Source: Bilabrum cf. latius
Lineage: Eukaryota
Assembly: GCA_965178125.1 (NCBI GenBank)
Contig: OZ237765.1
Location: 744,001 to 808,000, forward strand
DNA: 64,000 bases
Direction of reading: 5' to 3'
The notes below the pieces were generated by a model. That model searched no databases, had not been told where the DNA came from, and saw only the letters and a program-made list of their open reading frames with translations. The translations under genes were made by a program, and so were the position numbers. Below are positions 13,181 through 62,600 of this stretch, in pieces (the stretch's first letter is position 1; each line of letters opens with the position of its first letter).

Positions 13181-14770
13181 ATGCGAACGGTAGTCTCAAT
13201 TATTGGTAGCCTAATGGCATCTATGGCCGCTGCCAGAATCTCTCATGTGAGAATGCATGATGTATCAGTGTCGGCTTCCGCGAAGAGTGTTCGGAGCGTC
13301 TTGCATCGCCTCAGATACTATTCCTATCTCATCGGCCGGTTGAATTGCCGGGCCCCTGCTCTGTTGTATTTTAATCTCGAAAGTGTGTGTTTGTCGTCTT
13401 GGCTCGTAGTGTCGAGCTATTCGGCAACTCGCACCCCTCCGCGTCACATGGCTTCTGTTTACCATGCGGTATGCCCATGGGTTGCTTGAACGTACGATAT
13501 GGGTTTACATGTAAATTCCACGCCACGTTATCATCGCAGTCTTGCGCTTGGGATAGCGGGCTCGGTGCAACATTCAACCTTGCGCCATTCGTGGGCGACG
13601 AGGGGATCATGCTGCAAGACGACAGAAATGTGGATGATGGGCAGATGCACTGGGAATACGCTATTGGTTTCTGTAATAACTTAGGTGAGACCGTGCTTTC
13701 CCGTGCCAATATTGCGATGGCATTGCATTGTGTACTTGTGTGCGCTGCAGTCGGGACCCTTCCAAGAGATCCGCCTCGCACACGAACGCACCCCCAAGGG
13801 CACCCTCCCTATCAGTCCCAACCCCATCTTAATTGCGTTACCGAGCAACTTCGCAGATTCGATCCCGGCGGACTACCCCATGTGCCAGCAGACGGGCCCC
13901 TTCGGCGGCCCCTACACAAACTCTGCCCCCGCGCCCGCCTTCCAGTTCGCCTCCCCCATCAACAAGGATGACCCGGACACGAGGGACAAATGCTACCGCC
14001 TCGGCGGGGACGTGGGCGTCCTGGGCAACCTCAAGTTCGACCTCATCTGGGGCCCCAACTCGACAGACCCCTCCGAGGGCCTGTCTCTGACCTACTCGGG
14101 CGGAGACCTCTGCAAGGCCGACCAGACCCAGAAGCGCAAGATCAGGCTGCATATGCTCTGCGACGTCAAGGCCTCGTACCAGCCCTCCAGGGCACTCGTC
14201 GTGGAGGACAACGTCTGCGAGTACAACGTGATCGTGCACACCAAGTACGCGTGCCCCCTTGAGTGCGACCCCGACTATGGGGAGGACTCGCCCTCTCGCA
14301 GGGCCCTCCTCGAGGAGAACAACCCGTACAAGGCGCGGGAGCTGCAGTTCAACCCCAAGGGGGGGCTCTGCCACAGCCACGGTGTGTGCGGGTACGACCA
14401 GACCAACGGGTACGCCAAGTGCTTCTGCAACGAGGGCTACTCCGGGCAGTACTGCGAGCAGCTGGGCGACAAGGGGCTGGTTCCCATCAAGAGGCACACC
14501 GGCAACATCGTGGGCGCGCTCTTCGGAGGCATCGTGACGGGGCTCGTGCTCGCGGGCGGGGCCTACTGGTACTTTGTCATCGGGTGCGGTGGGGGCATGG
14601 GCGGCGGCATGGGAGGGGGCATGGGGGGAGGGTCCAAGAGTGCCCCCAGCGGGGGGGACTACGCCCCTGAGTTTAGCGGGGCAGCCGGCGGGGCTGGCGA
14701 GCTGGACGGGGGCGACGATGGGGGTTACACTGCGCCCATCGACGACATGGACGTGGGCATGGACCACTAA
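13181..14770 (+). CDS. Type I membrane protein: signal peptide, MRH-like domain, EGF-like domain, TM, acidic tail (paralog B)
   Basis: Exons 13181-13246, 13540-13684 and 13857-14770. Motifs YAIGFCNN, LTYSGGDLC, CEYNVIVHTKYACP and CFCNEGYSGQYC; TM IVGALFGGIVTGLVLAGG. Ends TAA. Confidence 0.8.
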
Positions 14771-15205
14771 GCACTGTGACCTGTGGGGAGGTCGTGGGGC
14801 GTGTGACGAGTGGGAACTAGCTCGCCCATCCATTGCCTCCCCCGTGCTCTCTATCGTGTTGGTCCTGCCCGGCTGCCAATGACTGCTGGTGGGCGGGCGC
14901 GCTGAGTGTTTTTATTTCTGTGTGGTGGTGAAGGACTGGATGTGCGGCGGGGCACTTTCTCGGATCGCAGAGCGGGGGCAGCATGGAACGATGGCGTGGT
15001 TGGGTGGGTGGATGGCTGTCTGCTGCATCCTGTTACTGTGTGATGAGTGGGCCGCGGGGCCGCACGCGTCGCTGCCCAGGCCGTGTGCATTGCGTGGCGA
15101 CAACTCTGGAATGAACCACACACGCAAGTGCGCAAATGTCCATGTGCATGTTTAGCATGCGCAAAAGCCATTCAATCGCACACCATATATTGCACGCTTG
15201 CTACA

Positions 15206-16322
15206 TCACGGGGTCGCGTGCACGAGCTGAGTTGTCGAGGCCGTGCTGGCGTCGCTGAGCCCCGCCTCGGTTTTGCCACCCCCACCATGCTCGATGCATT
15301 CAAGTGCTCCCAAGCGAGCATCATCCGTAGTTTTCGATTCCTATCCCCGCACGCCATCGCGCAGATGGTCTCCCCACGCCCCGCAGCACCCCGGGCACCA
15401 CCCCCTGATGTACACCTCGGCCAGAGCAAGCGGAGGCAGGTAGAAGAGCCACGCCGCCACGTTCAGCCATGTCACGAAGGCAGTTCCATCGAGGAACCTA
15501 AGCCTGAGGAACAAAGGGAATACGAGCAGCCTGTACACGGCGCTCCCGATCCCCACCGCGTACAGCCGAGTGGCCCACGCTCGGTGGGACTCGATCTCGC
15601 GGTGCCAGGCATGCCAGCCCGTCATGCATGCGCAGCCCAGCATGGCCAGGCCGTACCCAACGAACGACACATCCATCACAATCCCGCCTCTTGTGCTGTA
15701 CAGTATGGTGTAGATCAGGCCTGGGACGGCCGTGACGGCGCAGGCAGCGAGATATGTCCGTCCAGTCCACCGATGGACTGCAGGGTAACTGCGTCGGATG
15801 CACTTGACGAATTGGAGCGGGCCAGCCAGGAGGATGATGACGCCGCCGGCCCAGTGCATGCCCATGAGGAGGGCGTGGTACGTCTGCGAGACTGATAATT
15901 GGGAGCAGTCTCTTAGTTTCGGTCAAATACAGTGTGTATCCTATGCAACTAAGACTCAAACAGAACTTACCTGAGAGAAGTCTTCTATGGACTACCATTC
16001 GCTGACAGGCTGCGCATTGTCATTTGAATAGTGATCAGATCTGTGCGAAGAGGAGTTCTGGTCTCGGCGGTGGACGCCAGAATAGTGAAGGGGTCCGGGT
16101 ATGCGTCGGACATCTCGCCTTCGAGGAAAAGAAAAGAAATATGTATCCAGCAAATAGAACACCCCATGCTGCGAGACCCCACCAGAGCCATTCCACCGTT
16201 GTTGGAGAGCAAGACTCCTCGGCATTTTCCTGCGGCTGTGACGGACCCGCTGCTGCGACGCCCTTTATCAGCTGCCATGACATATCATTGGCAATTAACG
16301 GATCCCCTTGGGCTTGAACCAT
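15206..16322 (-). CDS. DUF2306-type multi-pass membrane protein, tandem copy 1
   Basis: Exons 16322-16119, 16009-15971 and 15883-15206; the first intron has a GC donor. Motifs MHWAGG...GPLQF...PAVHRWTGR.Y and HRAWATRLY. In-frame TAG at 15992 and 15341. Ends TGA. The start could instead be ATG 16283. Confidence 0.75.
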
Positions 16323-16476
16323 ACAATGTGACACTTCTAATCTCTAGAGCCAATCCCTGTTTCTTTGGGCTACTGGACAAATAACAGTCGCGGTGCCTGC
16401 CTAGACCCATCCGGAGTCGCAGTATTTCCGATGCTTCGAAGCCACGTCTTCAGACGCCTTCACAGGCACATAAAGC

Positions 16477-17928
16477 TCACACCTACCCTGCCTCAAGAGG
16501 GTCTACATCGGCTTCGCTGCCCGACGTCTCGCGAGAGGTCCCTGCCGCCCGCACGCCTGACGCAGCCAGCGCAACGCCGCTGCTAGTGGCCCCCACCTCC
16601 GAGTCTGCACCACCACTAGCACCAAGTTCTTTAGCATCGTCCGCATCGCCATTGTCTAGTTTCTATCCGCCATCTTGCTCGATCCCGCTCCCGCAGCACC
16701 CCGGGCACCACCCCCTGATGTACACCTCGGCCAGAGCGAGCGCAGGCAGGTAGAAGAGCCACGCCGCCACGTTCAGCCAGACCTCAAACTCGCGGTCAGG
16801 CAGGTAGAAGAAAAAGACAGGCACAATCAGCAGCCTGTACACGGCGCTCCCGATCCCCACCGCGTACAGCCGAGTGGCCCACGCTCGGTGGGACTCGATC
16901 TCGCGGTGCCAGGCATGCCAGCCCGTCATGCATGCGCAGCCCAGCATGGCCAGGCCGTACCCAACGAACGACACATCCATCACAATCCCGCCTCTTGTGC
17001 TGTACAGTATGGTGTAGATCAGGCCTGGGACGGCCGTGACGGCGCAGGCAGCGAGATATGCCCGTCCAGTCCACCGATGGACTGCAGGGTAAGTGCGTCG
17101 GATGCACTTGACGAATTGAAGTGGGCCAGCCAGGAGGATGATAACGCCGCCGGCCCAGTGCATGCCCATGAGGAGGGCGTGGTACGTCTGCGAGATTCGA
17201 AATGGGCATTGGGAAACTAACATAGAGTGCCGACGGTGACAGCAGCGAGTTGCTGGCGCCGAGACCGACTTGTCGCGCTTTTGAAATCGGGAAGACGCTA
17301 GCTTTGGTAGCACATCTATGATTTCCTGTATTAACTTGCGTTTATGTGCAAAGCATGCCGCAATGGGGACTTCATACCTGCCGAATGCACGAGCTGTCAT
17401 GCTTCCGGTTATGTCAGCAGCGGAAGTCTCCTCGGTGGGTGCGCTGGAGCTATCCTGCTCGCACGGAATGATGCATTATAAGATGAAACACCCTTCTCAC
17501 CTCAGAATAGTCGCTGACTGTTCCCCAGGTCTCGCTTGGCTGCGCTAGGAAGGGATGCACAGGCAGAACGGCACGGTGCTCCGGAAGCGTCCGCGGAGGC
17601 TTCCCGGCGGGTAACCGCAACGACACGAGCACCGGCGGGGAGCACCTGCTCTGCCATGCGAGCACGGCTTGCGATCGATGCAGCTATACCATGCAATACT
17701 TCTTACTTGGGCAAAGAACACTACCACGATGTACATGGCGAACAGCCCTCCCCAGCCCACGAGCGCCCACCAGAGCCAATCCACGCATGTGGCCTCTCCA
17801 CAGCAGCAGGCTTCCACTGCGGGCACGCTGGGGGCCCCAGGCGAAGTTGGCGAGTCTTTATCGTGGACACCGTGGTAGTCATCGTCCTGGTGAGCAGGTG
17901 TCGCTGCCATTTCTACCTGAGAAGCCAT
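16477..17928 (-). CDS. DUF2306-type multi-pass membrane protein, tandem copy 2
   Basis: Exons 17928-17707, 17539-17501 and 17187-16477, with the same 39-nt middle exon as copy 1. In-frame TAG at 16663 and 16483. Ends TGA. Confidence 0.8.
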
Positions 17929-18036: not shown

Positions 18037-20574
18037 ATGATGGCTGCAGCCGGTCTGCTGGCTCTATGCGCAGCATTGGTTGGTGCTGAGTTGGGAAACC
18101 GCCCCGTAAAGTTCAAAGTGCAGCCCGCAAACACCGACACATCGAAGGTGCATCGTCTTATCGTGGTGACTAGCTCGCACCTCGACCTAGGATTCAATGA
18201 CTTCTGGGGTGACACACACGGTCCATTTATGACCACGGGTATTATCCAACGCCACTGGGACGTCTACTACCAGCGGGCCATTGACACTCAGATTGCGCTC
18301 GCGGGCGATGATGAGGTGCGCCAGCTCCTCGCACCAAACTCCCTGCCGTATGCATACATGGCACAGCCATTCGTCGCAAAGCTGTTATACGATTGCGACG
18401 CATCGACACGGGGAGCCACTGCACTTGCTCGGGCGTGGAACGCGACCTGGTGGCCTTGGGGTGAGGATCGAACCAACGGTGGAAATGCTTCGCTCCCCTC
18501 CATCCCAGGCCCGCAGGGGGCTCCGCTGCTGAAGTGCCCACCTCCAAGCACAGTCGCTGCCTTCAAACAGGCTTTCAGCAACGGGACCCTTTTCCTGCCT
18601 GCGTACCCGCACAACGGCGGCCTGCAAATGCACACTGCCGGCGGCCTCATCGCCTCACTTGCGATCGCAAAGCGGCTGACAGCACAAGCAGGCGTGCCCG
18701 CCCCGCGGACGTATTCTTAGCGAGATGTCCCCGGCCTCACCCGGGGTGCCCTCCCCCTCCTCAACGCAAACGGGGTGCTCCAGGTGAGCCTGGGCTCTGG
18801 GGGTGCTCCAGGGGGTCACCCGGTGACCCCAGATGGACCCTTCGTCTGGAGGGACCAGGGAACTGGGGCTCAGGTGCTGATGACCCGCAGCGACGGGTAC
18901 GGGAACACCACGTTTGTCCTCCCAGACGGCACCGCAATGCTGTGCTACTGGAACAGGGACAACACGGGCCCGTTCTTCGCACCCTCGGTCAAGCAGGCGC
19001 TGCAGGCGCTCAGGGAACAATTCCCGCAGGCATCCATCGAGTTCGGTACATTCGATGCCTTTCTGGACGCGGCGCTCCCCCAGCTGCACCTGCTCCCTGT
19101 GCTGACCCAGGAGATCGGGGACGGGTGGCAGCACGGATCAGCGGCCTCGCCCTGGAAGCACGCGGCATTCATGGCACTGCAGCGCGCCAGAGAGGCGTGC
19201 ATCCTGGAGCGTGACCCGGCCTGTGACCCCTCCTCCTCTGAGATGCAGAGCTTCGACCTGTGGATGAGCAAGATCCCCGAGCACACGAGCGGGCTGAGCA
19301 CCAACTTTTACTTCACGGACTACAGCACCTGGACGAACGCTGAGTTCCAGCAGGCGGCCAGCTCGAGGAGTCCCCAACACGGCGAGTACAACGTGTATGC
19401 CCAGAGCCTCCTCGAGCAGAGCGCGGTCATCGACTGGGCCCTGGCCGCGCTCCCCGAGGGCCACCCTATCCGGCAGCGAGCCGAGGGGGCCATCGATCGG
19501 ATCAGGCCCAGGGAGCAGCCGGACCCGGGGTCGGAGGGTGCGGTCCCCCTGCAGTTCAATGCATCCGGGCTTGCCGATGTGCGCTGTGACCTGGATGGCG
19601 TGCAGGTGGTTGCAACCGTGAACCGGAGCGCCGTGGGCGTGACTGGGCTGACCGTCGCTGGCTAGCCCATCGTGTCGGCCTCGAACGGGGGCGTGCTCGG
19701 GGTGCTTCAGTACCAGCAGCTGGACGATGAGCACGACTTCATCCCGTTCCTCAACGACTTCGGATTTGAGGCCTGCCCCAAGAACATGTCCAGCTCAAGT
19801 AACCTGGGTTGCAACAACTTCATGAAACCAGGGGCACAGGCCGCTGCCGGGGAGCAGATGGTGTCCAGGGTCGTACGCGGGCAGATGGCCGGGGCATGGG
19901 CCGCGACCAGCTCTGCTAATGGACGCATGAATGGGCAGGGGCAGTGCTCGATGTACATCAAGGCCGATTTCACCAACAGCACCGCGAGCAGGACCGCGGG
20001 CGCGCCTGCCACCGGCTGGACGGTGATCCGTGTGAAAGCTGCGGGTGCGCGAGCGGTGCAGGTGTCCATCGATACGCAGGTGTTCGATAAGCGCGCCACG
20101 CGGCTCCCGGAAGCCCTGTGGACGAGCTTCCGGTTCGATGCGCCTGACGGGAGCGAGGCTGGTGGTGCCACTGGCAGCGGTGGCAGTGGTGGTCAAAGCC
20201 GTGCCGGGGGCGCCTCTGCAGGGGGTGAGTGGAGGGTGCGGGTGCTGGGGCAGCCCGTGGATCCCACGGACGTGGTCAGGCACGGCTCCACGCACCTGCA
20301 CGGCACTGCCAATGGGGTCACCTACGTGTCTCCCGGCATGAACCTGACCGTGACTTCGCTGTCGGCGCCGCTCTGGAGCACCGGGATCATGAGTCCATTT
20401 CCCACTCCGTCGGGCCCGCCTGACGGGGAGACGTCAGCCGTATTCAGCCCTTCCCGCGGGCTGCACATGAACTTATGGAACAACGTCTGGAACTGCAACT
20501 TCCCAACGTTCTGGCCCTTCCGCAAGGAGGACGCCAACCTGAGCTTCGGATTTTAGGTTCTTGTGGAATTGTGA
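18037..20574 (+). CDS. Secreted DUF5054 / GH38-N-terminal-like glycoside hydrolase superfamily protein
   Basis: Signal peptide. Motifs IVVTSSHLDLGF, S*RDVPGLTR, EIGDGWQHG, KIPEHT, TRLPEALW and NLWNNVWNCNFP. In-frame TAG at 18718, 19663 and 20554. Ends TGA. Confidence 0.75.
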
Positions 20575-30915: not shown

Positions 30916-31042
30916 TGTGTAGAAGAGTTGTGGGTGCTAAAGACTGTGGGGTCCAGAGAAGCGCGTACCGTGGCGTCGTGCGGCTCTCCGGCTAAATTCG
31001 AACAATTATAATCTTCATGTTTCAAATCTTGCACAACGCGAG

Positions 31043-31408
31043 ATGATGGACATGTTTGAGATGATGTGCGAGGGCCTGCCGCGAGATCACAAAGTGACCG
31101 TGCTTAACCTATCTAGGACGGCCATAGGCGACGAGGGCAGGGTGCACTTGACAGCAGCCATCATCATGATGATGCGGGCGAACGGGGGGTGCGGAGTGGG
31201 TGCTGAGGCGATGCTGGAGGCGCTTCGGAGCGAGGCTTGCACGGTGCGCTTGCTGGACCTGTGGGGTAATAATGACATCCCGGGGGAGCTGGCGGATGCC
31301 ATCGCGGAGGCAGCAGCCAAGAACGGATCCGAGTGGCGGGCGTCCCACTGGCACCACTTGCCAGTGGTGGGCTCAAGGTGTGCATTAGGCCTGCAGGAAA
31401 ACCACTGA
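31043..31408 (+). CDS. Short leucine-rich-repeat (RNI-like) protein or fragment
   Basis: VTVLNLSRTAIGDEG and TVRLLDLWGNNDI resemble LRR units. The ORF is short and its structure is uncertain. Confidence 0.4.
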   Translation: MMDMFEMMCEGLPRDHKVTVLNLSRTAIGDEGRVHLTAAIIMMMRANGGCGVGAEAMLEALRSEACTVRLLDLWGNNDIPGELADAIAEAAAKNGSEWRASHWHHLPVVGSRCALGLQENH

Positions 31409-36427: not shown

Positions 36428-36576
36428 GCCGATGGGATTGAAGCGGCAGAATTACACGCAGAGAGAGACGTTGACAGTTCCGGCGCCGCGCACGGTTCCG
36501 GAACATGCAAGCCGAGCTCAACAACAACCATGATGGATCTCTGGATTAGCTCAAAATGCTTCTGTCAGTGCGATGT

Positions 36577-37157: not shown

Positions 37158-37188
<31 letters not shown>

Positions 37189-44177: not shown

Positions 44178-44294
44178 CTTGATGCTAAGACTGCTGCAGC
44201 GTTGTGGCGGCACAGATGGACTTGAAGCAAGTTCCGGTCCACGAAAATCGAACCAGTCATGTCGCAGTGATCGCGCCAGCATGATAGTGAAGCT

Positions 44295-47200: not shown

Positions 47201-48611
47201 TGCCCCTTAGACATCAGGGTCGCTGTCTGTCGGACCGGCCGGTGGCTTGGATCCAGAGGTGCTGAGGCGCTGTGTGAGCGTAGGACTGCGAGGCCGACTG
47301 GCCCGGCATGATGGCAGGGGCGTGTTCGTGACTCTATCCGGGGGACTGCGCGCCGCGCTGGCCCCTGGGAGCTCCCTGGGGACTCGGCCGCACGGCTCTT
47401 TGCCCGACTGGGTGGTTTTCATGAGGATGATTCCGGCGATCGAGCCCGCCAAAGACCCCGCTGGCAGGGTGCGAGCTTTGATGCAGAGGCATGGGGGCTC
47501 CATGCTCTCGAGCGGGACTGGGGCTGGGGCTGGGAGCCGTGGCAGCACCGCGATGGTTCCGATGGGGGCGAAGCAGGGATCGGGCAGTGGCAGTGGCACT
47601 GCTGGGAGTGGCCGGCTTCAGGGCTTGCAGGTTGGGTTTGGGGTGGGCAGCGGTGACTACGGGGAGGACGACGAGGAGGAGGACGGGGACTGGGCGCAGG
47701 GGAGCGGGAGCAGGGGGGGCAGCAGCCGCATTTGGAAGGACAAGGAGGGCAAGGGGGACATGGTGGAGTGGCTGCTGCGGGACCGGTAGCCCGAGTTCAA
47801 AGCGAGGCGGGAGGGGGCAGGTGGCATCGGAGGAATGGCGGGTGCATCCTCTGGAATTGGCGGGGTAGTAAGCCATGGGTTGCCGATGCTGGTGGATGCC
47901 GAGGCGGCTGACTTGGAGACAGCTGCTCGTTGGTCGGGTGGGGCGATCTCTACCACGAGTCAGATAGAGAGAGAGGCCAAGCAAAGGAGAGACATCGCAC
48001 TGACGAGGGTGCAGAGGAAGAAAACGACAATGCAGAAGAACAATGGTGCACAGGTGAGTGGCACAACCCGGGCCAAGGTAGATCCTAGATTTGTGGACTC
48101 TGACTCTGACTCTGACGAGGAGGGCAAGAGGCGCAGGGGGAGGGGCGCAGGGGCCGGGAGCACGGGGTAGGCGGGCGTTTTGCCTAGTGCGGGTCCGTCT
48201 CCTGGTGATCATTTGAGGCAAGTGGGCGCGCTGGCTGGGCTGCGGCCGGGAGCAGCCGCCAGCACTGTCGGGGCGGATGTCGTCCGTGAGGGAGAGGCTG
48301 CACTGGCCAGTCGGGAACAAGCGGTGGGGGCCGGGGATGCAGAGGATGAAGAGGACGGTGGGTCCGGCGCCATACTGCGATTCAGAAGGAAGAAGGACAG
48401 GAAGACTGGGGGCAGGCGCAGGGGGGTGCAGATAGGCGGCGGTGGGGGTAGCAGAAAGCCGGAGCGGCTGGCCCGCAACCCATACGCGAGAGAAGAGCGC
48501 ATGGGTCTGGCAGCTGTGCATGAGGCCAGAGAGAGGAGAGAAAGGGCAGAAGCAAGGGAGGCGGACCAACGCGCTAGGGAGGTAGCTAGACAGGCGCGGA
48601 AATTTGAATGA
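44295..48611 (+). CDS. Degenerate DEAH/RHA-family helicase-like protein (RecA-like, HA2 and OB-like regions; catalytic motifs lost)
   Basis: Single frame with 7 in-frame TAG (44340, 44502, 45324, 45708, 47019, 47787, 48168). Segments LLVDPSLGSWGVLLL, GAVVVLLPTAAEV, VGRAMLRLPV, SGDIGTL, RWCREYGL and PDWVVF. Ends TGA. Start codon uncertain. Confidence 0.65.
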
Positions 48612-48704
48612 TCCGATGGATGGATGGAGACCTGCAAAATTACGGTCCAAATCCGGATTCCGGATCAGACTTGCGAGATAGAGAAAGGTGCATCGACAAG
48701 ACAA

Positions 48705-51700
48705 TCACATCCCGAGGGTGAACTGCTCCACTGGCTGCGGCGGTGCCACGGGCAGCCCCACCCCTTGCAAGAGGTGCGCCAGCGGCCCCTTGAGGTCCCG
48801 CATAGCCGCGCACTCGTCCGTCAGCTCTCCCGTGGCCTTGTCCATTGCGTGCAGGAGGGCGAGGATGGCGGTGGGGGGTCGCATGCGTGCAGCCCCGGCC
48901 AGCTCCGAAGCTGCCAACCGGGCTGCCCTTCCGCCCCCATACCCGCTGCCCAGCCGCTGCACCCGCTCTCGCTCTCCCTCTGGCACTGCCTGCATCGCGA
49001 GAGCCCACTGCGCCAGCCGGGCATCAACCAGCCCCCGGGCCCAGTCAAGCGCCCTCCCCAGACCGGGAGCCCCCTTGGACGGCAATCCCCACGGTCCCAC
49101 CCTCGCTCTCGTCCCCGCAGACGCCCCGGAGTGTCCTGCCTCCTCATCCTCCTTGCCCTCGCCTCGGCCGGCACCTGATCGTGCTGCCTGTTTGACTACT
49201 CCCAGGGCAGCAGCCGCGTCTCCCCACCGCAGGAGACCCCCCGCCGACCTGTGCGCCGCCGCCCCCACCAGCACCTGCCCCTCCGTGGCACTCAGCGCCC
49301 TGAGAGCGCCCTGCACCGCGCCCGACCGCCGGTCCCGCCTCTCTCCCGCCGTCCGCTTCCCAGGAGCCGCTGCCTCCCGCAGCAGACAAGCCGCGGCGGA
49401 GGACCCGTCGGCCCCGCTGCCTGCTGCAGGTGACCCGCTCGCCCTCGCCACCTTGACCAGTCTGGTCAGCACACCGGCGAGTCCCACCGCAAGCGGATCG
49501 GGCAGCCCCGTCCCCGCCAGCGCGGCGTGCAGCAGCAGGTCGTTCCTCTCGAGAGACACCGCCAGTCCCACGGCGTGCTCCACAGCCCGCCGCACCGCCT
49601 CCCGTCCCACCGGAATATCGTCCTCGGGAACACCCCGCGCAGTGCACTGCATCTTGCAGAACAGCTCCAGGGGCCCCCTAGTCGCTGTGTCCACGGGCAG
49701 CAGCCGGTGCGTGCTGCTGGCCAGCCGAGCCTGGAGGTCCATCCCACGGGTGCGGGTCCTCGGGTTGGATCCACCGATGAGACCAGCGCCGGCGGCATCC
49801 TCTTCATCCGAGTCGCTGTCGCTGTCCTCCTCACTCTCATCTTCATCCTCATCGTCCTCATCGCCATCCTCCATGCCAGCTTGTGCCCCGGACCCCCTCT
49901 TTGTCCCGACCTCCGCCCCTGCCAGCTCAGCACCGGCCAGCGCCAGCACAACCGCCACGCATCGCACAACAGCTGACTCGCTCACGTCCCGCACCCCTTC
50001 CAGAACACCGCATGCGCATTCAACCCACGCGCAAGCCAGCTGCGCCCGGAGGTCTCCTCCCTTCTGCCCCTCCTCTGCCCCTGCACTCCACAGCCCAGCT
50101 GGCATGCGAGCCACAGCCGCCAGCATGCCCCCCCGCCTCGCCTCCCCATCTGACAAGCACCCAGAAGCAGCCACGCGCGCAGCAGCCCGCACTGCATTGA
50201 CACAGGCCCGCAGACATGGAACGGTGGGCGACGGTGCGCCGGCTTCCATAGCAGCAGCCGCGCCCACCGCGTCAAGCACGCGAGTCACGGCCCGGGCGGC
50301 CGCCACGCGATCGGCAGACCCCGCCTGCGCCAGCGCACACGAAGAGGCAGGGCTGACAGCTTCTGAACCCGCAGTAGACTCAGCGGAAGATGCGCTGTCT
50401 GAGCGACTCCGCCGGCGGCCCCTGCCACCAGCTTTACCACTACCTTTGCCCTTGCTGTTGCTTTGCTCGTCGGCAGCCGCATCCTCCGCAGCAGCAGGCT
50501 CCACAAGCGCTTGCAACGCTTGCGTGGCGGCTTTCAGGGGTGTGACGAGCGAGCCTCCGACGGCCCCAGACCGCGCCGCGGCTCCAGCCTTCTCGAGCGC
50601 AGTTCTGCTGACCTCTGATGCTGCCAGCACTCTAGCCCGTGCAGCAGCGGCGGCCTCCTCGAGGCCAGCTCGGGCTGCTACGCTGGCTGCGTCGTGGGAC
50701 GGCGCGAGCGCAGCAGCCGCGAGGGCGCCTGCTACTGGCACCACAACAGAGGTGCCGATGGAAGGCGCCGCGATGGCTGCCAGAGGGCCAGCCCCTAACA
50801 CCGGTCGCAACCGCCGGCTGGTCCTCGCGCCGGCGCTGCCAACTGCATCAGCGAGAGTGGGGATGCGCGGCAAGGCCTGCGCCACCGCCACCTGGTTGCC
50901 TACACATAGACACACGTGGCACCCGTTGGGCCCCTGCTGGGATGCGCCCACCTGCAGCGCATGCAACGAACCAGTGGGCGCACCCTCGCTCTTGCCCTTT
51001 GATGCATCCCCTGTACCATCTCCCTCTCCCTCTTGCTTCCAGCTGGTGGATCCAAGCAGCACGCCTCGTTCTGCGTCCCACACGCCCAGCTCCGTGCCCT
51101 TGCCGTCCGCACCCACATGGGCCAGCAGCAAGGTCCGCGGCTCGAGGCTGAACGCAGCGGCGCCACCTCGCCCCTCCCCCACTACCTCCGCATCACCCCT
51201 TTCGGCAGCTTGCAGCCGGGGCAGCTTGCCCACGACGCCGACAGAGGGCGCGTGGCTGTACCACCCAGGCATCAGCCGGAACCTGTGCTGGGTCCACAGC
51301 CCGCTACCCCAGAACAGGGACAGGCACAGCATCTGCTTGTGGAAGCAGCCGGCCAGCACGCGATTGTCGGCAGCAGCGCCACTGCCGCTGGAGGCCTCTG
51401 CTGCCATGGGCTGCAGCGCGTGTCTCAGCGAGAGGCTAATTGAGGCAGAGCCCACTTCCCCTCCAGCCGCCGCTGACTCCTATGGCTAGACGTCATACAC
51501 GAGCAGCTCGGGCCCGGCGCCCCTGTGCTCCTAGTCGCCCTCGCCCTCGTCGTCTCCGTCGGTTGCCGACCCAGTATCGCTGCCCTTGCTGCCCCTGCCG
51601 CGAGACGAGCTGCGAGTCTTCCGGGTCTTGCGAGGCTTGGGCCCCTTAGGCACGGCAGTGGGCTGCACCACGACCAGCAGCACGTGCTGGCCAGCAGCCC

Positions 51701-52314
51701 TCCCCTTGAGGCTCACCAGCCGGCTCCACACCACGCGGCTGCCCGGAGTCCCGCCCACGCCTGCCTGAGTTACCCGCAGGGGGGCTCCAGCCGCGCCTCG
51801 CTGACGAGCTGCCACGAGGCTGGTGGAGCCGTCCCGATGCAGGAGAACCACAGGGCAGCGCTCCGTGGTGGAGGGGCACAGCACGGACGACACGGGAGTA
51901 GTGACGTCCAAAGTGGACGCATCGCGGAGTGTGGAGTGGCGTTCGTCCCACGCTAGAACCTTGGAACCATCCACAACGGCCATAAATTGCCGAGACCTCG
52001 CATGAAGGATGGCTGGCGCCGTGAAGCAAGTGCCGGTGCCGGCGTCCAGCGACCAGGACATGACGCACCGCCTTTCAGACGCCTACGAGGGAGAAGCGAT
52101 GATGCACGTAAATAAAGTGCCAATGATTCTGATCTGCGAGGTACTGATCTGCACCAAGGTCTTGCAAAGCGCGTAGTCTCACGTGGTAGACACGAACATG
52201 GGCTGTGCTTGTCAAGACCGGGAGCAGAGCGGCACTTGAAGCATTGACGCTGGCCCAGCTCTGTCCAACGATAGAATGGCTCTCTTGCAGCTGGCTTAAC
52301 GAACCAATCTCCAT
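48705..52314 (-). CDS. NOL11: Nucleolar protein 11 (NOL11/Utp8)-like
   Basis: Exons 52314-52183 and 52082-48705. VRVYHASERRCVMSWSLDAGTGTCFTAPAI...VVDGSKVLAWDE resembles the NOL11 N-terminus; C-terminus VEQFTL. In-frame TAG at 51531, 51486 and 51480. Ends TGA. Confidence 0.6.
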
Positions 52315-52426
52315 CTAGCCTATTGCTAAAGCTGGTCCCAAGTTTTGTTGTCAAGGAACCAATTATGGAACCTTCGCTGGGGTTCGGCACAATAATTGTG
52401 CAAGTGGCCAGATCAGTCAAGTTTAG

Positions 52427-55036
52427 ATGTCAGGCAAAATTGGAAATGACTTACAACGACTGATAAAAGGACTCGAGATAGTTGCGCATCACTTCGGAAA
52501 GCACGCGGTGAGATCTGATCGGTATTGATGCATACATAGGCTCGTTTTGCCTGAGCAGTTAATCCATGACGTGTCTCCAGCCTATCTTGAGAGTTCACGG
52601 CCGCAGGGGTCGCAAGTTGCCCGGAGACGTATTCAAGTGTCTAAACATGTACAGGATATGGCTACTACCTTGCCGAAAGTATTGTCGGTCCGATCTTCGA
52701 CCCAGGAAGTTCATGGAGGAAAAACAGCAACACCAGCTCACGAACCTGAAACACCACTCGACGGAAGACCCAAATCCAGTACACGCACTGCAAGTACTCA
52801 TTCCAATAGATTTGCTTTTCCAGCTGATTCTGTATCGGACCTGGTAACGCAAGCGTCCGAACCGACCAATAGCTCCATGCAGCAACAGTCGAGCAGCTAG
52901 CACGAGCAGTCTCACGATGACCGTGCAAGCCCCGAAGCCAGTTATCATGTCACCACACTCAGCCAGCAGCATGAGCAGGAGCCCCAGCCTCGTCGGCGCG
53001 CCCCAGTCCCGATCGAGGGCGCGGTGGAGGCCTGGGAGCTGGCCGACAGGGCGCACGCTGTCCCCGAGGAGGGCATCGACGCGACGGGCGGAGGCGGGAG
53101 TGGGGGCATTGCCGCGGGGGGCAGGCGCTTCCGGGAGAGGGCCGTGCCTTCTAACAGCTTTAGTAGGGCGGTGGGCTTCGGCAGCATTGGCGTGCAGATG
53201 GCGGCGGCAGCGATGGGCAGCTGGGTGAGCGGCGGATCCGGGTCCTCCTCGTCGGGATCGAAGGGCGGGTTTCTGACCGAGGACACGGCAGATGCGCTGG
53301 CCCAGGGTCTCTGCCGCATGCGCGGCGCGGCCCTGAAGCTGGGCCAGATGATGTCCCTGCAAGACGAAGAGGCTATCTCGCCCGACGTGGCGCGGGTCAT
53401 GGAGCGGGTGCGGACCGCCGCTGACGTCATGCCGCGGGCGCAACTCGAGGCTGTGCTGGAGGAGGAGCTGGGCGAGGGCTGGAGGGAGCAGTTGGGTGGC
53501 GAGTGGAAGGGGCCTAAGGGGGGGCAGCAGCCGCAGCAGGGGGGGGAGCAGTAGGGTGAGGACCTTGATACAGGCAGAGAGAGCCAAGGGCACGGGGACT
53601 TGCTGAGCGGATTCGATCCATCTCCAGTGGCAGCTGCCTCCATCGGACAGGTGCACCGGGCCGTGCTGCCTGACGGCTCCAGGGCCGCGGTGAAGGTCTA
53701 GTACCCGGGTGTGGGCGACTCGATCGAGAGCGACCTGCTCAACGTGACCCGGCTGATGACGGTGGCGGGCGCGGGGGTGCCCAAGGGGCTCTACCTGGAC
53801 AGCGTGGTGTCGAATGCGCAGGAGGAGCTGTCGCTGGAGTGCGACTACTTCTTCGAGGCAGAGGCGCATGAGGCCTACAGGTGTGCCTTGGGGGCGCTGG
53901 AGGGGGCGGATGCGGGCTTGGTGGACCTGGGTGTGGGGGGCGAGGGGGCCGTGGGTGGAGGGAAGGAGCCCAGCTGGGGGGTGCGCGTGGGTGCAGGGGA
54001 CAGGGGGATCGGGTGGCAGGAGGGCTCTAGCCTCATGGTGGACCAGGACACGGAGCATGAGGCGCAGGACTTTGTTGTTCCCCGAGTCAGGAGGGACCTC
54101 AGCGGCCGCAAGGTGCTGGTGACAGAGTGGGCTGACGGCGTGCCCCTGGATCGGTGCGTGTCGCTGCCTCAGGAGGCCAGGGACGGGATCGCGAGGCGGC
54201 TGCTGCGGCTGACACTGCGGGAGCTGTTCCAGCTGCGGTTCATGCAGAGCGACCCCAACCTGGGGAACTTCCTGTACGCGCCAAGCACGGACCGAGTTGT
54301 GTTGCTGGACTTTGGGGCAGCTCGCAGGTACGAGAAGAGTTTCGTGGATGACTACCTGCGGCTAGTGTGGGCGGCTGCTCTCCGCGATGAAGACGCGTTG
54401 CTGGAGGCGTCCTACCGGCTTGGCTTCCTGACTGGGCACGAGGGCGAGTCCATGGTAGATGCCCACCTGAAGGCCGGACTCGTGGTGGGGGAGCCATTCG
54501 CTGAGGACGGGGGGCTGTACGACTTCAAGGCAGCAAGGATCACAGCCCGTGTGGCGGAGCACTCGGCTGCCTTTGCTCAGCAGCGGCTGACCCCTCCCCC
54601 TCGACAGGTGTACTCCTTGCATCGCAAGCTCAGCGGGGCCTTCCTGATCTGCATCAAGATGGGCAGCCGCATGCACAGCTGGCCCGTGCTCAAGCAGGTC
54701 TTGGACAGCTACACGTTCACCACGCCGCCTCTGGAGGGACTCAGCCGTGGGGAGGCGGCAGAGAGAGCGAGGGAGGACCGGGCCAGCGGACGGTGGGCAG
54801 AGGGGCGGGCGGCGGAGTAGGAGATGGCAGCGGCGGTGCAGGCCGCGCATGAGGAGGAGGAGCAGCAAGAGCAGCAGGAGGGGGAGAGGAAGGGCCCATC
54901 CTGGTCGTAGAGGCGGAAGGTCCTTGGGGTGGACAGGGAGGGCATGCTCTGGAGGCTGCCTGCAGACGATGGGCACTTTGGCAGCGAAGCGCAGACCTGG
55001 GTGGGGCGTGAGGGCTTCATGCAGAGCAGGCAGTGA
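52427..55036 (+). CDS. COQ8: COQ8/ABC1 (UbiB family) atypical kinase
   Basis: Exons 52427-52507 and 52607-55036. Motifs [46 protein letters not shown] and HRKLSGAFL. In-frame TAG at 52898, 53552, 53699, 54818 and 54908. Ends TGA. Confidence 0.95.
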
Positions 55037-55137
55037 TGAGGTGCAGCTGCAGTTGAGCGAATACTTGGAATGAACAGACAGCTGTTGCAACAAACAATGC
55101 CCGTATTTATATCTGCATTCAACAAGCACAGGCCCGC

Positions 55138-56517
55138 TCAAGGGCCCGGGTCTGCTGCAGCAGACCCAGTCCCGGCAGCCTCCTCGCCCTCGCCCTCGCC
55201 CTCGCCCTCGCCCTCGCCCTCGCCCTCGCCCTCGCCCTCGCCCTCGCCCTCTCCAGCCCCGCCAGCTGCGGCACCCGCAGGCGCCGGCACCTCCCTGGGT
55301 GGCTATCTGCCCACCACCAGTGGCCTACCGTGCTCACCCCCGGGACTGGGCCCTCCCTCCTCGCCCCCCTCCTCCTCCACACCAACCACCCCCGCCACAG
55401 GAGACCCCGGGGCCCCCTCTCCCCTCGTGCCCGCCCAGCCCTTGAGGTCGTCGCTGGTCAGGCGCGCCGCCCCACTGAGGTGTGCCAGGGAGGCCCTCCT
55501 CCACTGTTCCTTGGAGGGGTGCTCGTCTGCAAGGGGGCCCGCTTTGGCCTCTTCCACCTTGAGGAGGCCCTTGGTGACGTACTGGAAGGCCTCCTCCACC
55601 GAGTCTGTGAAGTAGAGCCGGTCCACGTCCGACTGGCTCATGGTGCCCATGTCCACTGCCGCCTGAAAGTTCACCACCCTCCGCCAGTAGGTCTCGCCGA
55701 ACATCACGATGGGGGTGTGCCGCTTCCAGCGCCGCTCCTTGCCGCCGATCTTGCCCGTCTGCAGCAGGGTCATGGTCTCGGCCAGCTCGTCCAGAGTGCC
55801 TATGCCCCCAGGGGCCACCACCAGCGCGGCTGAGTCGTGGACCAGCCAGAACTTGCGGGTGGCGAAGTAGTGCAGCTCGAAGGAGAGTGCAGGGGTGCAG
55901 TAGGGATTCAAGGAGGGCTCGAAGGGGAGGCTGATCCCGATGCCGATGGAGCGAGCACCGGGCACTTGTGCAGCTCCCCCGTTTGCCGCCTCCATCATGC
56001 CGGGGCCCCCACCGGTCGCGATCACGTAGGGCTCCGAGCCAGACGCGTCCCGCCGGCCCATGCTCCATTCCGTCAGTCTACGGCTCAGCTCTCGTACCCT
56101 AACGTAGTACTCGCACATCCAAGCAGTGCGCTCGAGACGGTCGAGCTGCGCAACCGCGGTGTCTCGCTCCTCTGACCCCTCGGCTGCAGCCTCCACTGAC
56201 TTCTTGGCCGCAGCGACCGCCTTAACATGGTCATCAGGGTGTTTGGCACGAGCAGACCCGAAAACAAGTATGGTGCTCTTTACTTTTTCGCGTTGCAGAC
56301 GCTGTTCCGGTTCGAGCAGCTCCGAGAGAAATCGGAGGGGCTTTGCCGCTGGAGACGCCAGGAATGCAGCGTTCTTGTACGCCTTTTGCGGCTTAATCAT
56401 GTCCATGCCTGGGGGCAGCTGAACAACGGGGTCAAGTACGTCAGCCGCAGGGGCATCGCCTTCCACCCGTGCAGCTGCCACTGGCACAACATCCTATCCT
56501 TTCCCGGATGATGCCAT
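55138..56517 (-). CDS. LOG/SLOG-family (lysine-decarboxylase-like) nucleotide phosphoribohydrolase
   Basis: Motifs VFGSAR, TGGGPGMMEAAN, LPFE, YFATRKFW and PGGIGTLDE. ATG at 56517, in-frame TAG at 56494 and 55303, TGA at 55138. Intronless. Confidence 0.9.
55183..55250. repeat. (CTCGCC)n hexamer repeat encoding Gly-Glu in the LOG tail
   Basis: Directly visible. Confidence 0.9.
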
Positions 56518-56734
56518 TAGAAAAGAGAAGCTTGAACCACAGCTTCACAATAATACAATACTGTCTTCGCTAGATCCGCGTCGGCGTTCAGTAAATACTG
56601 TGTCGAGGCGGCTACTTCGTCAATCGGTTTCGCCCAATTCTGTTGAAATTCAGATTTTGGTTGCTTCAAACAACACCATATAAATAATCACATCTTGATT
56701 CTGTCAGAACAACATTTCGATCGAATAGCCCAGT

Positions 56735-59343
56735 ATGGCTGCTTTTCAGGCCGTAATGCGATGCCCACACATGCGAATGGCCTCAGTTGGGAATGGTGTG
56801 CTGCGTTCGTCCGCTTTGAAGTCAATGATGCGCTGCCCACACATGAACAAGGCTATGGCACAATCAGTTGCTTCCCTGTCTGGCGCCGCTACCAATGCGT
56901 CTGCCGTGGCCGCAGATGTTGCATCCAAGCGTGAGTATGATATATCTTGAGCTTATTGTGAAGCCTACAAAGGTCATACCCTCCAGTAGTCTGGCTGTGT
57001 GAACATGATGCAGGAGTCGCCGTACCGCTACTGCAGAGGCCGGCTCTCGCTCGGATGTTGGCCTTTGGCAAGCCTTATTGGGTGCTACGGGTGTAACTTG
57101 ATTCTAGATTTTGGTAACACCGCCGTTTAATCCGAATATTGAGGACTGGCTGAGAAACTGCCGATGCTGAGGTGACGTGGATGCTAGCTTTTCTTACCTA
57201 TGGTCTCCGTTGAAGCCAAATGGCCGTACTATTGCGGTCCAGTGAATTTAAAAGAACTCTATGAGTCTATTTGCCGGCTCTAGATTGCTCCGATGACATC
57301 CCCTAGTGTCTTCACGCTCGCTGCCATGCACGGATCCCTGATCAGTCGCCATGTTGCTGTTCTCATTACGCAGACGAGAACATACGTCGCTCTTCTTCCC
57401 CACCCCCCGAGTGCTTCGAAGCCCGAGCATCGCTTGCAGCTGGGCAGCAGCTGCCCCAGTCCGTGGCCCAGGTGGTGGCGAGCGTCGGGCACCGGCAAGC
57501 TGCATCTCCCCTACAGCCAGAGGCACGCGGCGCCGGCCAAGCAGTGGGCGATGCATCGGTTGCCGTCGAGGATGCATCTGAGTCCGGGCCAGACGTGTGG
57601 ATGAACCGCGGTGCCAAGAATGTCGATGCTGGCACATGCCCGCATGGACACGGGCAGCCTCTCGAGAGCGGCCGTGGCGGCGTTGCCTCAGCCACCGGAG
57701 AGCATGGCTCGTAGAAGGGGCAGATGGAAACGGAAGTGGGAGGGAAGCAGCAGGGAGGCTCGTCCGTCTCCCGCTACGAGGCCGGCTTCAAGCATGCCAT
57801 CAGCTCCATCCGCCGTGAGGGCAGGTACCGCGTGTTCCGCACGTTGGAGAGGCACCAGGGCAGGTTCCCCTACATGACGCTGCACGGGGAGCAGGGAACA
57901 GCCGAGGAAGGGGCACAGGGTGACGAGGGGCAGGCCCAGTCAGAGGCCAAGGAGATCGTGGGGTGGTGCTCGAACGACTACCTGGGCATGGGCCAGCACC
58001 CCGAGGTCATCCGGGCAGCCGTGCAGACGGCCGTGGAGTAGGGGGCAGGGGCGGGCGGCACCCGGAACATCAGCGGCACCAACTGCGAGCACGTGAAGTT
58101 GGAGCAGGAGCTGGCGGACCTGCACGGCAAGGGCGGCGCGCTCATTTTCCAGTCGTGCTACATGGCCAACGACGCGGTGCTGACCACTCTGGCCAAGGTC
58201 TTTCCCGGTCTGGAGGTGTACTCGGACGAGATGAACCACGCCTCTATGATCCAGGGGATCAGGCACTCGGGGGCCCCAAAGCACATCTACAGGCACAACG
58301 ACATGGAGCACCTGCGCGAGCTGCTGGCCAAGGCAGACCCCAGCACGCCCAAGCTTGTGGCATTCGAGTCGGTCAACTCGATGGAGGGCACGGTGGCGCC
58401 CATCCACGAGATCTGCGACCTGTGCGACGAGTTTGGGGCCATGACCTTCTGCGACGAGGTGCACGCCGTGGGTCTATACGGGGATACTGGGGCCGGGGTG
58501 GGCGAGAGGGACGGGGCCATGGATCGGCTCGACATGGTCACCGGGACGCTCGGCAAGGCATACGGTGTGGCGGGGGGATACGTGGCTGGGAGCGCTGCCA
58601 TGGTGGACGCGATGCGGCTCATGGCCAGCGGTTTCATCTTCACCACGGCCATGCCGCCCGCCAATGCCGCGGCCGCCACTGCCTCTGTAGCCCACCTGAA
58701 GAGATCCACCTGGGAGCGCCGCTTCCTGCACGCCAACTCGCAGCACCTGAAGCGGCTCCTGGTAGACGCTGGCATACCGGTCATGGACTCGGTCTCGCAC
58801 ATCGTGCCCGTGCTGGTGGGTGACGCAGCCAAAGCCCAGGCGGCCTCAAAGATGCTCCTGGAAAAGCACGGAATTTACGTGCAGCCCATCAACTACCCCA
58901 CGGTGCCCCGTGGCACGGAGCGGCTCCGGATGACGCCTACCCCCTTCCATTCGGAGGCCATGATGAGGCAGCTGGTGGAGGCCCTGGGGCAGGTGTGGAC
59001 CGAGCTGGGGCTGGGGAGGTCCCGTGCCTGTCCCGCGGGCATCAAGGAGTACGCTGCTGTGCCCGAGGAGGAGCACCTCCCGAGGGTGGAGTGGAGCGGG
59101 CCTGTGCAGCGGGAGGACAAGGACGTGACGGCGGTGGAGCGGGAGAGGCACGAGGCCAGGGTGAGGGAGTTCCACCAGCAGGCAAGCGCAAGGGGAAGGG
59201 GCAGAGAGGCGCAGGGGGCCACGGATGCGCTACAGGACAGCGCGCTGTGGTGGGCAGGGGTGCACGCATGTGGCGCAGCGGCCGAGGGTTTGAAGGAGGC
59301 AGCGGAGACTGGCCATCATGCCCAGGCGTAGGGTCGGGTGTGA
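56735..59343 (+). CDS. ALAS: 5-aminolevulinate synthase, mitochondrial, with N-terminal CP heme-regulatory motifs
   Basis: Exons 56735-56930 and 57374-59343. Motifs [47 protein letters not shown] and [17 protein letters not shown]. In-frame TAG at 57712, 58039 and 59329. Ends TGA. Confidence 0.96.
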
Positions 59344-59687
59344 GAAAGCTGGCAGGGCGGTAGGGGAGATCGCCTCAATCAGGCTGCTTTAATGTGTTGA
59401 TCTGGTCCAGCGCATAGTCGGGGCAAATGCTCGGCTTCTGCCGCTCGCAGATACACCTTAGGAGCAGCGAGTCTAACAGTGATCCACACGATCCATACTT
59501 GATTCGCGAAGAATCCTAGCAACTTCGGGATCCATCCATGGATACATGAACGAATCATGATAATCCCATAAGATCCTCACATTTTGTTATAACTTATCTT
59601 CAGAACAGATCCTCGGACATGGTCCGATCTAGACTTGGTCTGCTTGGTATTGCACCGGTTCTGTGCAGACAGCCAGAGAGCTCAACC

Positions 59688-62600
59688 TTACGTACTGCCC
59701 GTCCTTGCGACCGACTCTGCACCGAGGTGGCGTGACTGCTGCGCGTACCGCGCTGCGACCCACAGGGTCAAGCTAGCACTCCACAGTATCCCCAGCATGG
59801 ACAGCACTAGTGGCCCGCCCACTAGTATGCCCCGCTCCCACAGCCACAGCCTTGCGTCAAGCAACTCTCGCGCGGGCGACTCGTGCCGCGCAACCGCGCA
59901 GAACCCGGCAGAGGCCGGGTCCTGCATCGAGGTGCACCAACCGCCCAGCGAAAGCGCAGCAAAGAGGCCGAGATCCTCGAGCAGCCGCACCGCAATAGAC
60001 TGCACCCGCACTCGGCCCACCCACTCTTGCACGGGATTTGTGGCCCACCCAGCCAAGCCACCAGTACCCCCCAGCAGCATGAGCATGTGGCTGGGCCCCG
60101 CGTCCCACGCAAGCAGCGACACCAACCGCATGGCTACTATGGAGCTCTTGCTCGGGGTCTTTGCGCGGGCAAGAGGCAACCAATGCCCATCGATCAAGTG
60201 CTATCGACTACTGGTTTCCCCGCTGCTCCGGACTCTGTTGTACTACATGCTCTTGCCGGAAGCGGCCGACGGGTGTGCCATCAACGCGTCGGCTCGATCA
60301 TGCTTGTACGCTTGCTCCTACGCGTGTACCAGCTCCGCGACACAGTCCGTCTGTGGCTCGAGCGAGCCTCCGGAGCTGTCCATCGACTGCACCATTGGCC
60401 CCGTGTCCACAGCGAGAATGCACCCGCCCGCAACCTGGCTGTGCACGCGCATGTCCGACTCGGAGGGCGCACCACTGCTACGTAGGCGACTCGATGGGAC
60501 CACCGGACTGGCGCCTGAGTCCAGGGCTGCCGCTCCGGTGTTTGGATGCTGTGGTAGGAAATGCAACGAGTCAGTTCCAGCGTGAAAGCTTCGTGGGGAG
60601 TTCCTGCCCTGCATGGCTAGTCGGTATTTCGGGCCCGACTGCGCCGCGGGATGAATCGCGGTGAGCTGTGCATCGCTTGCAAATCGGCTCCCTTGCCCAA
60701 GCAGCTCGATCAGCATGCTCGTGGCATCGTGTCCCATGCAAGTCAGTATAGCTCTGCAAGCCCCGCCCAACCCAGCAGCTACCACCAGAACAGCTCCCGC
60801 CCCTGACAGATCGGCAGCGATAAGGGATAAGGCCAGCAGGATGTACCCCATGGCGCGAGCGACACCCGCCGCTGCTATCAAGTCAAGAGTACATACTAGC
60901 GAGACATCAGAGCTGCCGACCCCCTGCCCACCGCTGCTATCCTGATCCTCCCCTAGGAGCACACTAGATAGCCCTGCAGGGTCTTTGTCCACCATGCAAA
61001 AGCTTTGATGCACGCACTGCCCTACCGCCCCCACGACGCACAGCAACCCTACAGCCACGGTGCACCATGCCCAGGGAGAGGCGCTCAGCTGCGCTGCAGG
61101 ACACCTGTCCCACCTGCTGGCAGACCCCTCGCGCAGGCAAGGCAGCCGCACTTCAAGCCGCGCGCTGGATGCGTTCACAACTGGTAGCCACACGCCTCCC
61201 GGCAGCTGACCAGCTCGCAATAGCCGCACGAGACGCTGCGCCAGAGCCCCGGCGCTGCGAGTCCTCTGCTGCGGCACCCCGAGAACCTGCACTGCGGGCA
61301 GAGGCCTGAGTCTGACCTTGACGTCAATCTCCATGCGGATCACGGGCGGGTGCACCGAGGGTTGCAGCTTGGTCAGGCTCTGCTGGCTTGAGGCGGCTTC
61401 GGGTCGATCGGTGGGCAAGTCGCCGATGGGCCATTGCGGTGGATGTGCTCTGATGCCCATGATGAGGGGCTCAATACGGCGAGTGTCGAGGGAGACGTTC
61501 CTGCCCTGGTCTGCGTCCCACTCCCCCAAAAGATCTGCGATGTCAGCGCCTAGCTCCGCGGAGAGATGGTGCAGCTGGTCTGGGCTCGGCTCGGGATATT
61601 GCAGCCCCGGTGGTGCAGCGGGCTAGGGGGTCATGACCTGGGCTTGCGGCCACATATTTCGGTCGAAGTCGAGCGTGAAGTGCACCAGGGCAGTGCTGGA
61701 CTGCTCCCTCTGGGCCCATGCGGCAGAAAATGACAGCTCAACGCCTTTGCCCCGGTCGTTGACACACGTCAGTGTATGCTCGGCCCCATTGTGTGAGGCT
61801 GTAGCTCCATTCACAGGCAGGGGCGGTGACCCCGACCAGGCTGAAGACCACACCCTCGACACCGAGGCAGCCATGGCCCACCCGGTTGGTCTACCTGTGG
61901 GACTCGGTTCCATCACCAGGTCGACGGGCACATGGTCGGGATCATTGCACTTTGCCCTGCACACGGGTCGATACTAGAAGGCACCGATCAAAGACGTGTC
62001 GTTGCACTCCCATCCTCCCCCATTCACGACGGGCAGCTGCTGCAGCGCGGCCCCTGGGATTATGCGATCTAGCCGTACCCCCCTATACCTGGCGAATGGT
62101 CCTATCAGCGGAGATATCATCTCCTATGGCAGGGACCAAGCAGGTGACACCGGATCTTGGAGCGGTGTCGCGCTGCCATTCAGCGATGGGCTGGCTCGAG
62201 GTCCACGAAGGCGAGATATAGGCGGGCGCCAGGCACCGTGGGATGGAGGGTATGCCCTGCGGAACTCGCCGCCTATGGTCACTGCTCGCGTGGAAGTGGC
62301 CGCGGGATAGTCAAAGTGCACCAGATCTATGTTATACTCGCTGGTATTCACTGAGTATAGAGAAGCGCAGCCCAATTTGCCAGCCCTGCGCCAGGCAGGC
62401 AGGGCCTTCTGAGCGTCCATCCAGGACTACGACGCGGCGCTGATGGCGGATTGGCTCCATTGCAATTTGTTATCGAAAGAATGATCGTTAGTGCCTGCCC
62501 CTAGGGCGACAGTGGGGGAACAGTTCCTGGCCTGCACGCAGGAGGGGTCGTCCAGCAGCACGATGGCAGCGACCAGGACCGGCTCAGTGCCCCCCTTCTC

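Follow-up and report, generated by a model that had tools for sequence, protein, structure and literature searches.

The window analysed here is a stretch of 64,000 nucleotides (nt) from Bilabrum cf. latius (contig OZ237765.1, forward-strand positions 744,001 to 808,000), and all coordinates below are positions within it, with the strand in brackets. The subject of this study is the way in which its genes end. TAG is almost certainly read as glutamine, TGA terminates most genes, TAA terminates three, and each of these three TAA codons has an in-frame TGA two to four codons behind it. The G+C content of the window is 64% overall (0.60 to 0.72 per 4 kb), and its source is a GC-rich, intron-poor, flagellated eukaryote whose nuclear code is the one described here. 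An aphelid origin is ruled out by base composition, as the genomes of Amoeboaphelidium have a G+C content of about 40% (PMC10608142). A protein-atlas comparison with one TAG-free ORF of the window pointed only vaguely to Cercozoa and Ciliophora.

Standard stops break the long reading frames of the window. When TAG is read through, they fuse into open reading frames (ORFs) of up to ~2000 amino acids (aa), with 5–16 TAG codons each. Twenty-two genes were curated by ORF length, a codon-bias score trained on long ORFs, and Pfam. Nineteen of the 22 end in TGA and three in TAA; TGA also terminates two extra weak ORFs, at 30941–31408 (+) and 35954–36451 (−). The first-pass annotation of this DNA had counted 20 genes ending in TGA and 3 in TAA, a count in agreement with this result. 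That TAA ends only three of the 22 genes is most simply put down to GC pressure, under which TGA becomes the usual stop; TGA usage increases with GC content according to the accessible part of PMC9348620.

The genes recognised by Pfam are eukaryotic and include a gamma-tubulin complex component, CFAP91, a p25-alpha protein, 5-aminolevulinate synthase (ALAS), argininosuccinate synthase (ASS), a COQ8/ABC1 kinase, a LOG-family protein, a cation-efflux transporter, a triple-RRM protein, an EXPERA protein, a DUF5054 protein and two DUF2306 paralogues. The latter are membrane-protein genes in tandem, at 15206–15922 (−) and 16477–17475 (−), and their near-identical cores with differing N- and C-terminal tails suggest a recent tandem duplication. 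Convergent stops lie only 69–168 nt apart in five pairs (7932/8006, 20574/20742, 33531/33600, 48611/48705 and 55036/55138), so that the 3′ untranslated regions (UTRs) must be very short or overlap on opposite strands. No tRNA, no Rfam RNA and no eRF1 gene was found within the window.

Introns are few. Three transcript-like runs (X5–X7), whose RNA status is a guess and which were used for joints and bridging contigs only, contain GT..AG joints that skip 443, 100, 99 and 115 nt; the DNA run X1 is without them. This read evidence spans positions 44001–64000 and so reaches the third of the TAA sites described below and neither of the other two. In ALAS, a GT..AG intron of 443 nt at 56931–57373 (+) separates a short 5′ exon (~56720–56930) from the main ORF; it is present in all three transcript-like runs and missing in the DNA run. 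Homology indicates an upstream exon for ASS as well, with the donor AAG|GTAAGA.

Several lines of evidence identify TAG as a glutamine codon. At 53699–53701 (+) the reading frame of the COQ8/ABC1 kinase carries a TAG where the VA(V/M)K(V/I)-Q-YPG motif has its conserved Gln, and in a residue-level alignment this TAG stands against the Gln of VAMKIQYPG in COQ8B and COQ8A chains of solved structure. A further TAG, at 18718–18720 (+) in the DUF5054 gene, occupies the conserved Gln of an S-Q-RDVPG motif. The pattern x-RD[VIL]P is present in 111 of the best 150 homologues from a representative search, with x being Q in 97 of the 111, and P0008, a relative with 95% identity, has Q exactly at the TAG position. 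Two metagenomic loci related to one of the TAA-ending genes (gene 3 below) were also compared. In one of them, L002, both TAG codons (2/2) align with Q of the window gene. Three TAG codons in the other, L001, lie in poorly aligned stretches and, like one ALAS TAG in a variable column, are uninformative. L001 and L002 both carry TAG and neither TAA nor TGA inside their long frames, so that the code is common to a clade. In the transcript-like contigs the TAG codons are unchanged, with no other letters in their place.

TAG is also found close to the ends of genes. Its distance ahead of the TGA stop is 2, 4, 6 and 9 codons in, respectively, a DUF2306 copy (16483–16485, −), ALAS (59332–59334, +), the DUF5054 gene (20554–20556, +) and CFAP91 (33624–33626, −). 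Four TAG codons within the last 10 codons compare with 0.93 expected (P = 0.015). At some gene ends UAG may have a dual role. In the DUF5054 gene all 12 of the 12 inspected homologues extend 3–14 residues past the TAG position at 20554, and TAG there is thus sense, read through on the way to the TGA, and not a relic stop. In this gene, the sole one open to a check, the idea of a relic UAR stop followed by TGA thus failed, and as a general model it lacks support.

TAA behaves differently. From the first ATG to the stop, the 22 genes comprise 17,480 codons, among them 74 TAG, 570 CAG, 120 CAA, no TAA and no TGA. If TAA were used in the same manner as TAG, the CAA:CAG ratio of 0.21 would predict 15.6 in-frame TAA codons, and none was observed (Poisson P = 1.7e-7). 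The other two frames of 19 ORFs contain TAA 26 and 42 times. Eight ORFs are bounded upstream by TAA; coding continuity across the TAA was seen in none of them, and the ASS case is an intron. The statement of the first-pass annotation that there is no internal TAA thus holds over the whole curated set, and so does its view of TAA as a rare stop, since at two of the three sites TAA also marks a C-terminus common to relatives.

These counts bear directly on the possibility that TAA, too, encodes glutamine (code 6) or is ambiguous according to context, in which case the real terminator of the three genes would be the TGA. The position of all three in-frame TAA codons, 2–4 codons ahead of a TGA, speaks for such a code, and among the variant codes of eukaryotes UAR=Gln is the commonest (PMC5304391). 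Against it stands the absence of TAA from gene interiors, by which this possibility is effectively excluded: two genes with low G+C at third codon positions alone predict ~5.5 and ~2.7 TAA codons. The proteins of relatives (P0001 and P0002) finish at the TAA position, and the long ORFs of L001 and L002 contain no TAA. We regard this explanation as close to refuted, and the earlier suggestion that TAA might be a very rare glutamine codon falls with it; even when it is pooled with explanations other than those treated below, the total is improbable. We are therefore highly confident that TAA is a true stop, and equally so that in the nuclear code TAG encodes glutamine while TAA and TGA remain stops.

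The three sites were found to have exactly the TAA and TGA sequences that had been given for them at first. Gene 1, at 13499–14770 (+), encodes an MRH/ATG27-like protein with EGF and transmembrane segments, as predicted from its ORF, its codon bias and a weak Pfam ATG27 match. It ends ...DVGMDH-TAA, with the stop at 14768–14770 (+) in the context CAC TAA GCA CTG TGA, and the in-frame TGA, the third codon past TAA, is at 14777–14779 (+). P0002, with 75% identity, terminates in an identical ...DVGMDH. A paralogue of gene 1 (26% identity) lies at 11801–12757 (−) and ends ...YYEVDEH-TGA, with a further in-frame TGA at +5. Both paralogues finish with acidic residues followed by His, a likeness that carries little weight as the BLASTP alignment reaches only the membrane segment.

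An exact 12-mer, GTGTGACGAGTG, was also observed in the 3′ UTRs of both paralogues. It occurs ten times in the window and in none of 100 shuffles, at 1287, 14801 and 32972 (+) and at 11695, 11798, 25571, 26077, 27879, 44938 and 45240 (−), and it is the most over-represented non-tandem 10–12-mer of the window. Its flanks are unrelated, only six one-mismatch variants exist, and copies lie in coding sequence on either strand as well as in these UTRs; it is not in L001 or L002. As a 3′ UTR motif it was considered as an origin of the TGA codons and rejected, since it does not provide the +3 TGA of gene 1 and is missing at the two other sites.

Gene 2, at 36577–42564 (−), encodes a low-complexity protein of 1995 aa that ends ...EPTNVI-TAA. 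Its 16 in-frame TAG codons are the maximum for the window, and it consists for the most part of perfect low-complexity runs, which include (AP)n, (GA)n, (GE)n and (KGKS)n as well as QQQPMQA repeats, with AGLSAPSGPTVPLPAS present five times. The stop is at 36577–36579 (−), in the context ATC TAA ACA TCG CAC TGA, and the TGA, the fourth codon past TAA, at 36565–36567 (−). A search for orthologues of the C-terminus gave five matches, all of low complexity and none usable, and the support for this site consists of the frame of 2020 codons and a drop in G+C past the TAA.

Gene 3, at 59688–63680 (−), is an ORF without a Pfam family that encodes a protein of 1330 aa with 8 in-frame TAG codons and ends ...ARTGST-TAA. 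An intron lies further upstream, at 63770–63884 (joint 63769/63885). The stop is at 59688–59690 (−), in the context ACG TAA GGT TGA, with the TGA, the second codon past TAA, at 59682–59684 (−). P0001, with 84% identity, finishes ...GRWGSR at the residue where gene 3 finishes ...ARTGST. Comparison with P0001 and P0002 thus places a stop-type codon at the same position as in genes 3 and 1, which in these presumably standard-code gene calls could be TAA, TGA or TAG. A metagenome scan with gene 3 yielded two loci (L001 and L002) from 16 pattern matches, both of them N-terminal fragments of distant relatives at about 35–59% protein identity; neither covers an orthologue of this stop, and the L001 contig is without any gene end. 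In L002, in which G+C is 56% and TAG is sense, the homologue of gene 3 has upstream of it an ORF of 791 codons that closes with two adjacent stops, TGA TAA (2374–2379).

The TAA of gene 3 is also contained in AC|GTAAGG, and it had been suggested as a possible splice donor; 59688 would then not be a stop, and the gene would go on in a downstream exon from a donor at 59689. This concern is reasonable because introns of this genome can begin with GTAAG, as homology indicates for ASS, and a CAG is located 31 nt downstream. An intron of 31 nt to that CAG would nevertheless be shorter than the range of 99–443 nt of the four introns seen, and only 345 nt separate the gene 3 stop from the convergent stop of ALAS. 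The splice reading is also contradicted by an X5 contig (59656–60771), which crosses the site without joint or gap, with at least 32 letters on each side. X5, though only guessed to be RNA, shows GT..AG joints of 99–443 nt at neighbouring genes that are lacking in X1. We consider the bridging contig good, not conclusive, evidence, and a donor at this site very unlikely.

The first in-frame TGA past the TAA stops is at codon +3, +4 and +2 for genes 1, 2 and 3, respectively. Past the 19 TGA stops it is found at +1, +5, +9, +9, +19, +19, +21, +23 and +39, and ten genes have none within 50 codons. An in-frame TGA within four codons therefore follows 3/3 TAA stops and 1/19 TGA stops, the single case being the COQ8/ABC1 kinase gene, which ends TGA TGA (55034–55039, +). 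In an exact permutation over the 1540 possible gene triples, the sum of distances was matched by 6/1540 (P = 0.0039) and the maximum distance by 4/1540 (P = 0.0026), the latter being equal to Fisher's test of 3/3 against 1/19. A same-frame TGA within four codons was found behind 22 of the 288 other TAA triplets in the window (7.6%; cubed, 4e-4) and behind 12 of the 117 intergenic ones (10.3%; cubed, 1e-3). The association is nominally significant, and with three cases found by inspection and a cut-off picked afterwards it is suggestive.

One account of this association is chance. Under the same code, TAA would be a fully efficient ordinary stop, and the three TGA codons would have arisen by coincidence because T, G and A are fairly abundant where 3′ UTRs begin. 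A pattern read off three cases after the fact invites this account, as does the TGA density, which is 2.7% per position in the first 15–30 nt past stops and 1.5% over 150 nt; a tenth of intergenic TAA triplets are, as counted above, already so placed. Nothing known points to weak UAA termination in UAG-only codes (PMC5304391 and the accessible part of PMC11687900). On the other side, the probability of the observation is 4e-4 to 1.7e-3 from background rates and 0.0026–0.0039 by permutation within the window, and in the other two frames past the 22 stops TGA was found within four codons in only 3/44. Chance thus appears somewhat unlikely.

A second account is historical and neutral. GC pressure would have turned old TAA stops to TGA, and the TAA stops seen today would mostly be nonsense mutations tolerated only in the last few codons of genes, for example TAG, CAA or TAC to TAA, with the former TGA stop remaining just downstream and no selection for a back-up. 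The change from TAG, a glutamine codon here, to TAA is a single transition, and TAG is in excess near C-termini, as described above. Two of the three TAA genes are, in addition, the least constrained of all, their codon-bias scores of 0.07 and 0.12 per codon being lower than any other in the window. This account meets three difficulties. Relatives with 84% and 75% identity end exactly where genes 3 and 1 do, to the residue, which indicates that the stop-type codon, possibly TAG in those relatives, is old. New TGA stops should likewise leave a TGA behind, yet only one of 19 does so. The idea of a relic TAG failed where it could be checked, in the DUF5054 family. We consider the neutral history unlikely.

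The third account is that selection maintains the TGA 2–4 codons behind every TAA as a tandem back-up stop, and this we hold to be plausible while short of probable. Such a TGA would limit read-through of UAA to an extension of 1–3 residues. Termination at UAA may be less efficient with an eRF1 that has been retuned so as to refuse UAG; another possibility is that read-through simply costs more in a genome with few in-frame stops in its 3′ UTRs. The tandem TGA is specific to the TAA genes in the window (3/3 against 1/19, with a background of 7.6–10.3%). As the stop positions are common to relatives with 75–84% identity, the stops would be old, and a TGA left over by neutral history should by now have decayed. 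Selection for tandem stops has been documented in organisms with reassigned stop codons (PMC6879139).

A number of points weigh against a selected back-up. There are three cases, noticed post hoc; TGA-ending genes show no excess of tandem stops (1/19); and the stops of P0001 and P0002 need not be TAA. As a rule, UAA is the tightest of the eukaryotic stops and UGA the leakiest. The +4 bases past the three TAA codons are G, A and G, and these are strong termination contexts. In ciliates the excess of tandem stops is modest, with log ratios of up to 0.756 (PMC6879139), far below 3/3. Across the UAG-only lineages described so far, UAA is the main and evidently efficient stop: it ends 104/119 complete transcripts in Iotanema (PMC5304391) and 86.9–98.3% of genes in the ciliates according to the accessible part of PMC11687900. 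Reassignment of UAG alone therefore does not imply a weak UAA. Finally, a tRNA with the anticodon CUA should not read UAA (PMC5304391), so that eRF1 would have to be the source of any weakness of UAA.

If a selected back-up stop is accepted, it would fit a lineage situated between a UAG-only and a UAR=Gln code, in which a weakened UAA survives only where a nearby TGA buffers read-through. Capture of UAG by glutamine, together with GC pressure that makes TGA routine, would have left UAA a weakened terminator, and a later capture of UAA by glutamine would cost almost nothing. We offer this as a conjecture that is rather unlikely on present evidence.

The code has a practical consequence. Gene prediction in this organism and its relatives must treat TAG as Q and keep both TAA and TGA as stops. 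Standard-code callers split such genes, as can be seen from the fragments in protein collections (P0001, P0002, P0008 and P0025).

We compared the window with known systems. A UAG=Gln code with UAA and UGA stops (NCBI table 15) was first demonstrated in Iotanema spirale (PMC5304391) and is known, in the accessible part of PMC11687900, from the phyllopharyngean ciliates Hartmannula sinica and Trochilia petrani, which followed later, and from Protocruzia tuzeti. As in these organisms, UAG in the window lies at conserved glutamine columns and does not terminate, as seen from its occurrence in ORFs of ~2000 aa and from the DUF5054 homologues. UAA and UGA are absent from gene interiors, and UAA is found at true gene ends, with C-termini conserved in relatives at two sites and without an orthologue match at site 2. 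In contrast to Iotanema and these ciliates, where UAA predominates, the window uses TGA in 19/22 genes and TAA in 3/22, and it belongs to a non-ciliate genome of 64% GC with long, intron-poor genes. The simplest cause of the difference in stop usage from Iotanema and the phyllopharyngean ciliates is GC content.

The UAR=Gln code (NCBI table 6) is used by many ciliates, hexamitin diplomonads, some ulvophyte algae and Amoeboaphelidium (as cited in PMC5304391 and PMC6299283). The window shares UAG=Gln with it and differs in that TAA does not stand for an amino acid: no UAA was observed at a glutamine column inside a gene (0 against 15.6 expected, P = 1.7e-7). In the context-dependent codes of Condylostoma, Parduczia, karyorelictids and Blastocrithidia, a stop near the transcript end likewise terminates and, as far as the accessible parts of the sources state, the terminator codon is also frequent inside genes; the 22 genes of the window have no internal TAA or TGA. 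Tandem back-up stops are known from UAR=Gln ciliates (Fleming and Cavalcanti 2019, PMC6879139), which share with the window a second in-frame stop in the first codons of the 3′ UTR and the loss of one or more stop codons. Their modest excess is behind the sole stop UGA, whereas in the window the pattern is seen in three genes only, behind TAA and not behind TGA. The literature covered, which excludes most subscription journals and supplements, yielded no account of UAG=Gln in a GC-rich eukaryote outside the ciliates, nor of tandem stops specific to TAA.

UAA and UAG are nearly always reassigned together, and uncoupled cases are rare (PMC5304391 and the accessible part of PMC11687900). From the dominance of UAA in the uncoupled cases it has been argued, in the part of PMC11687900 accessible to us, that a later reassignment of UAA is hardly possible. 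The window presents the opposite configuration, in which UAG encodes glutamine while UAA ends about one gene in seven, each time with a TGA close behind. If this is true genome-wide, Bilabrum would provide a natural test of a nearly cost-free second step to the UAR=Gln code, and of whether retuning of eRF1 away from UAG weakens the recognition of UAA.

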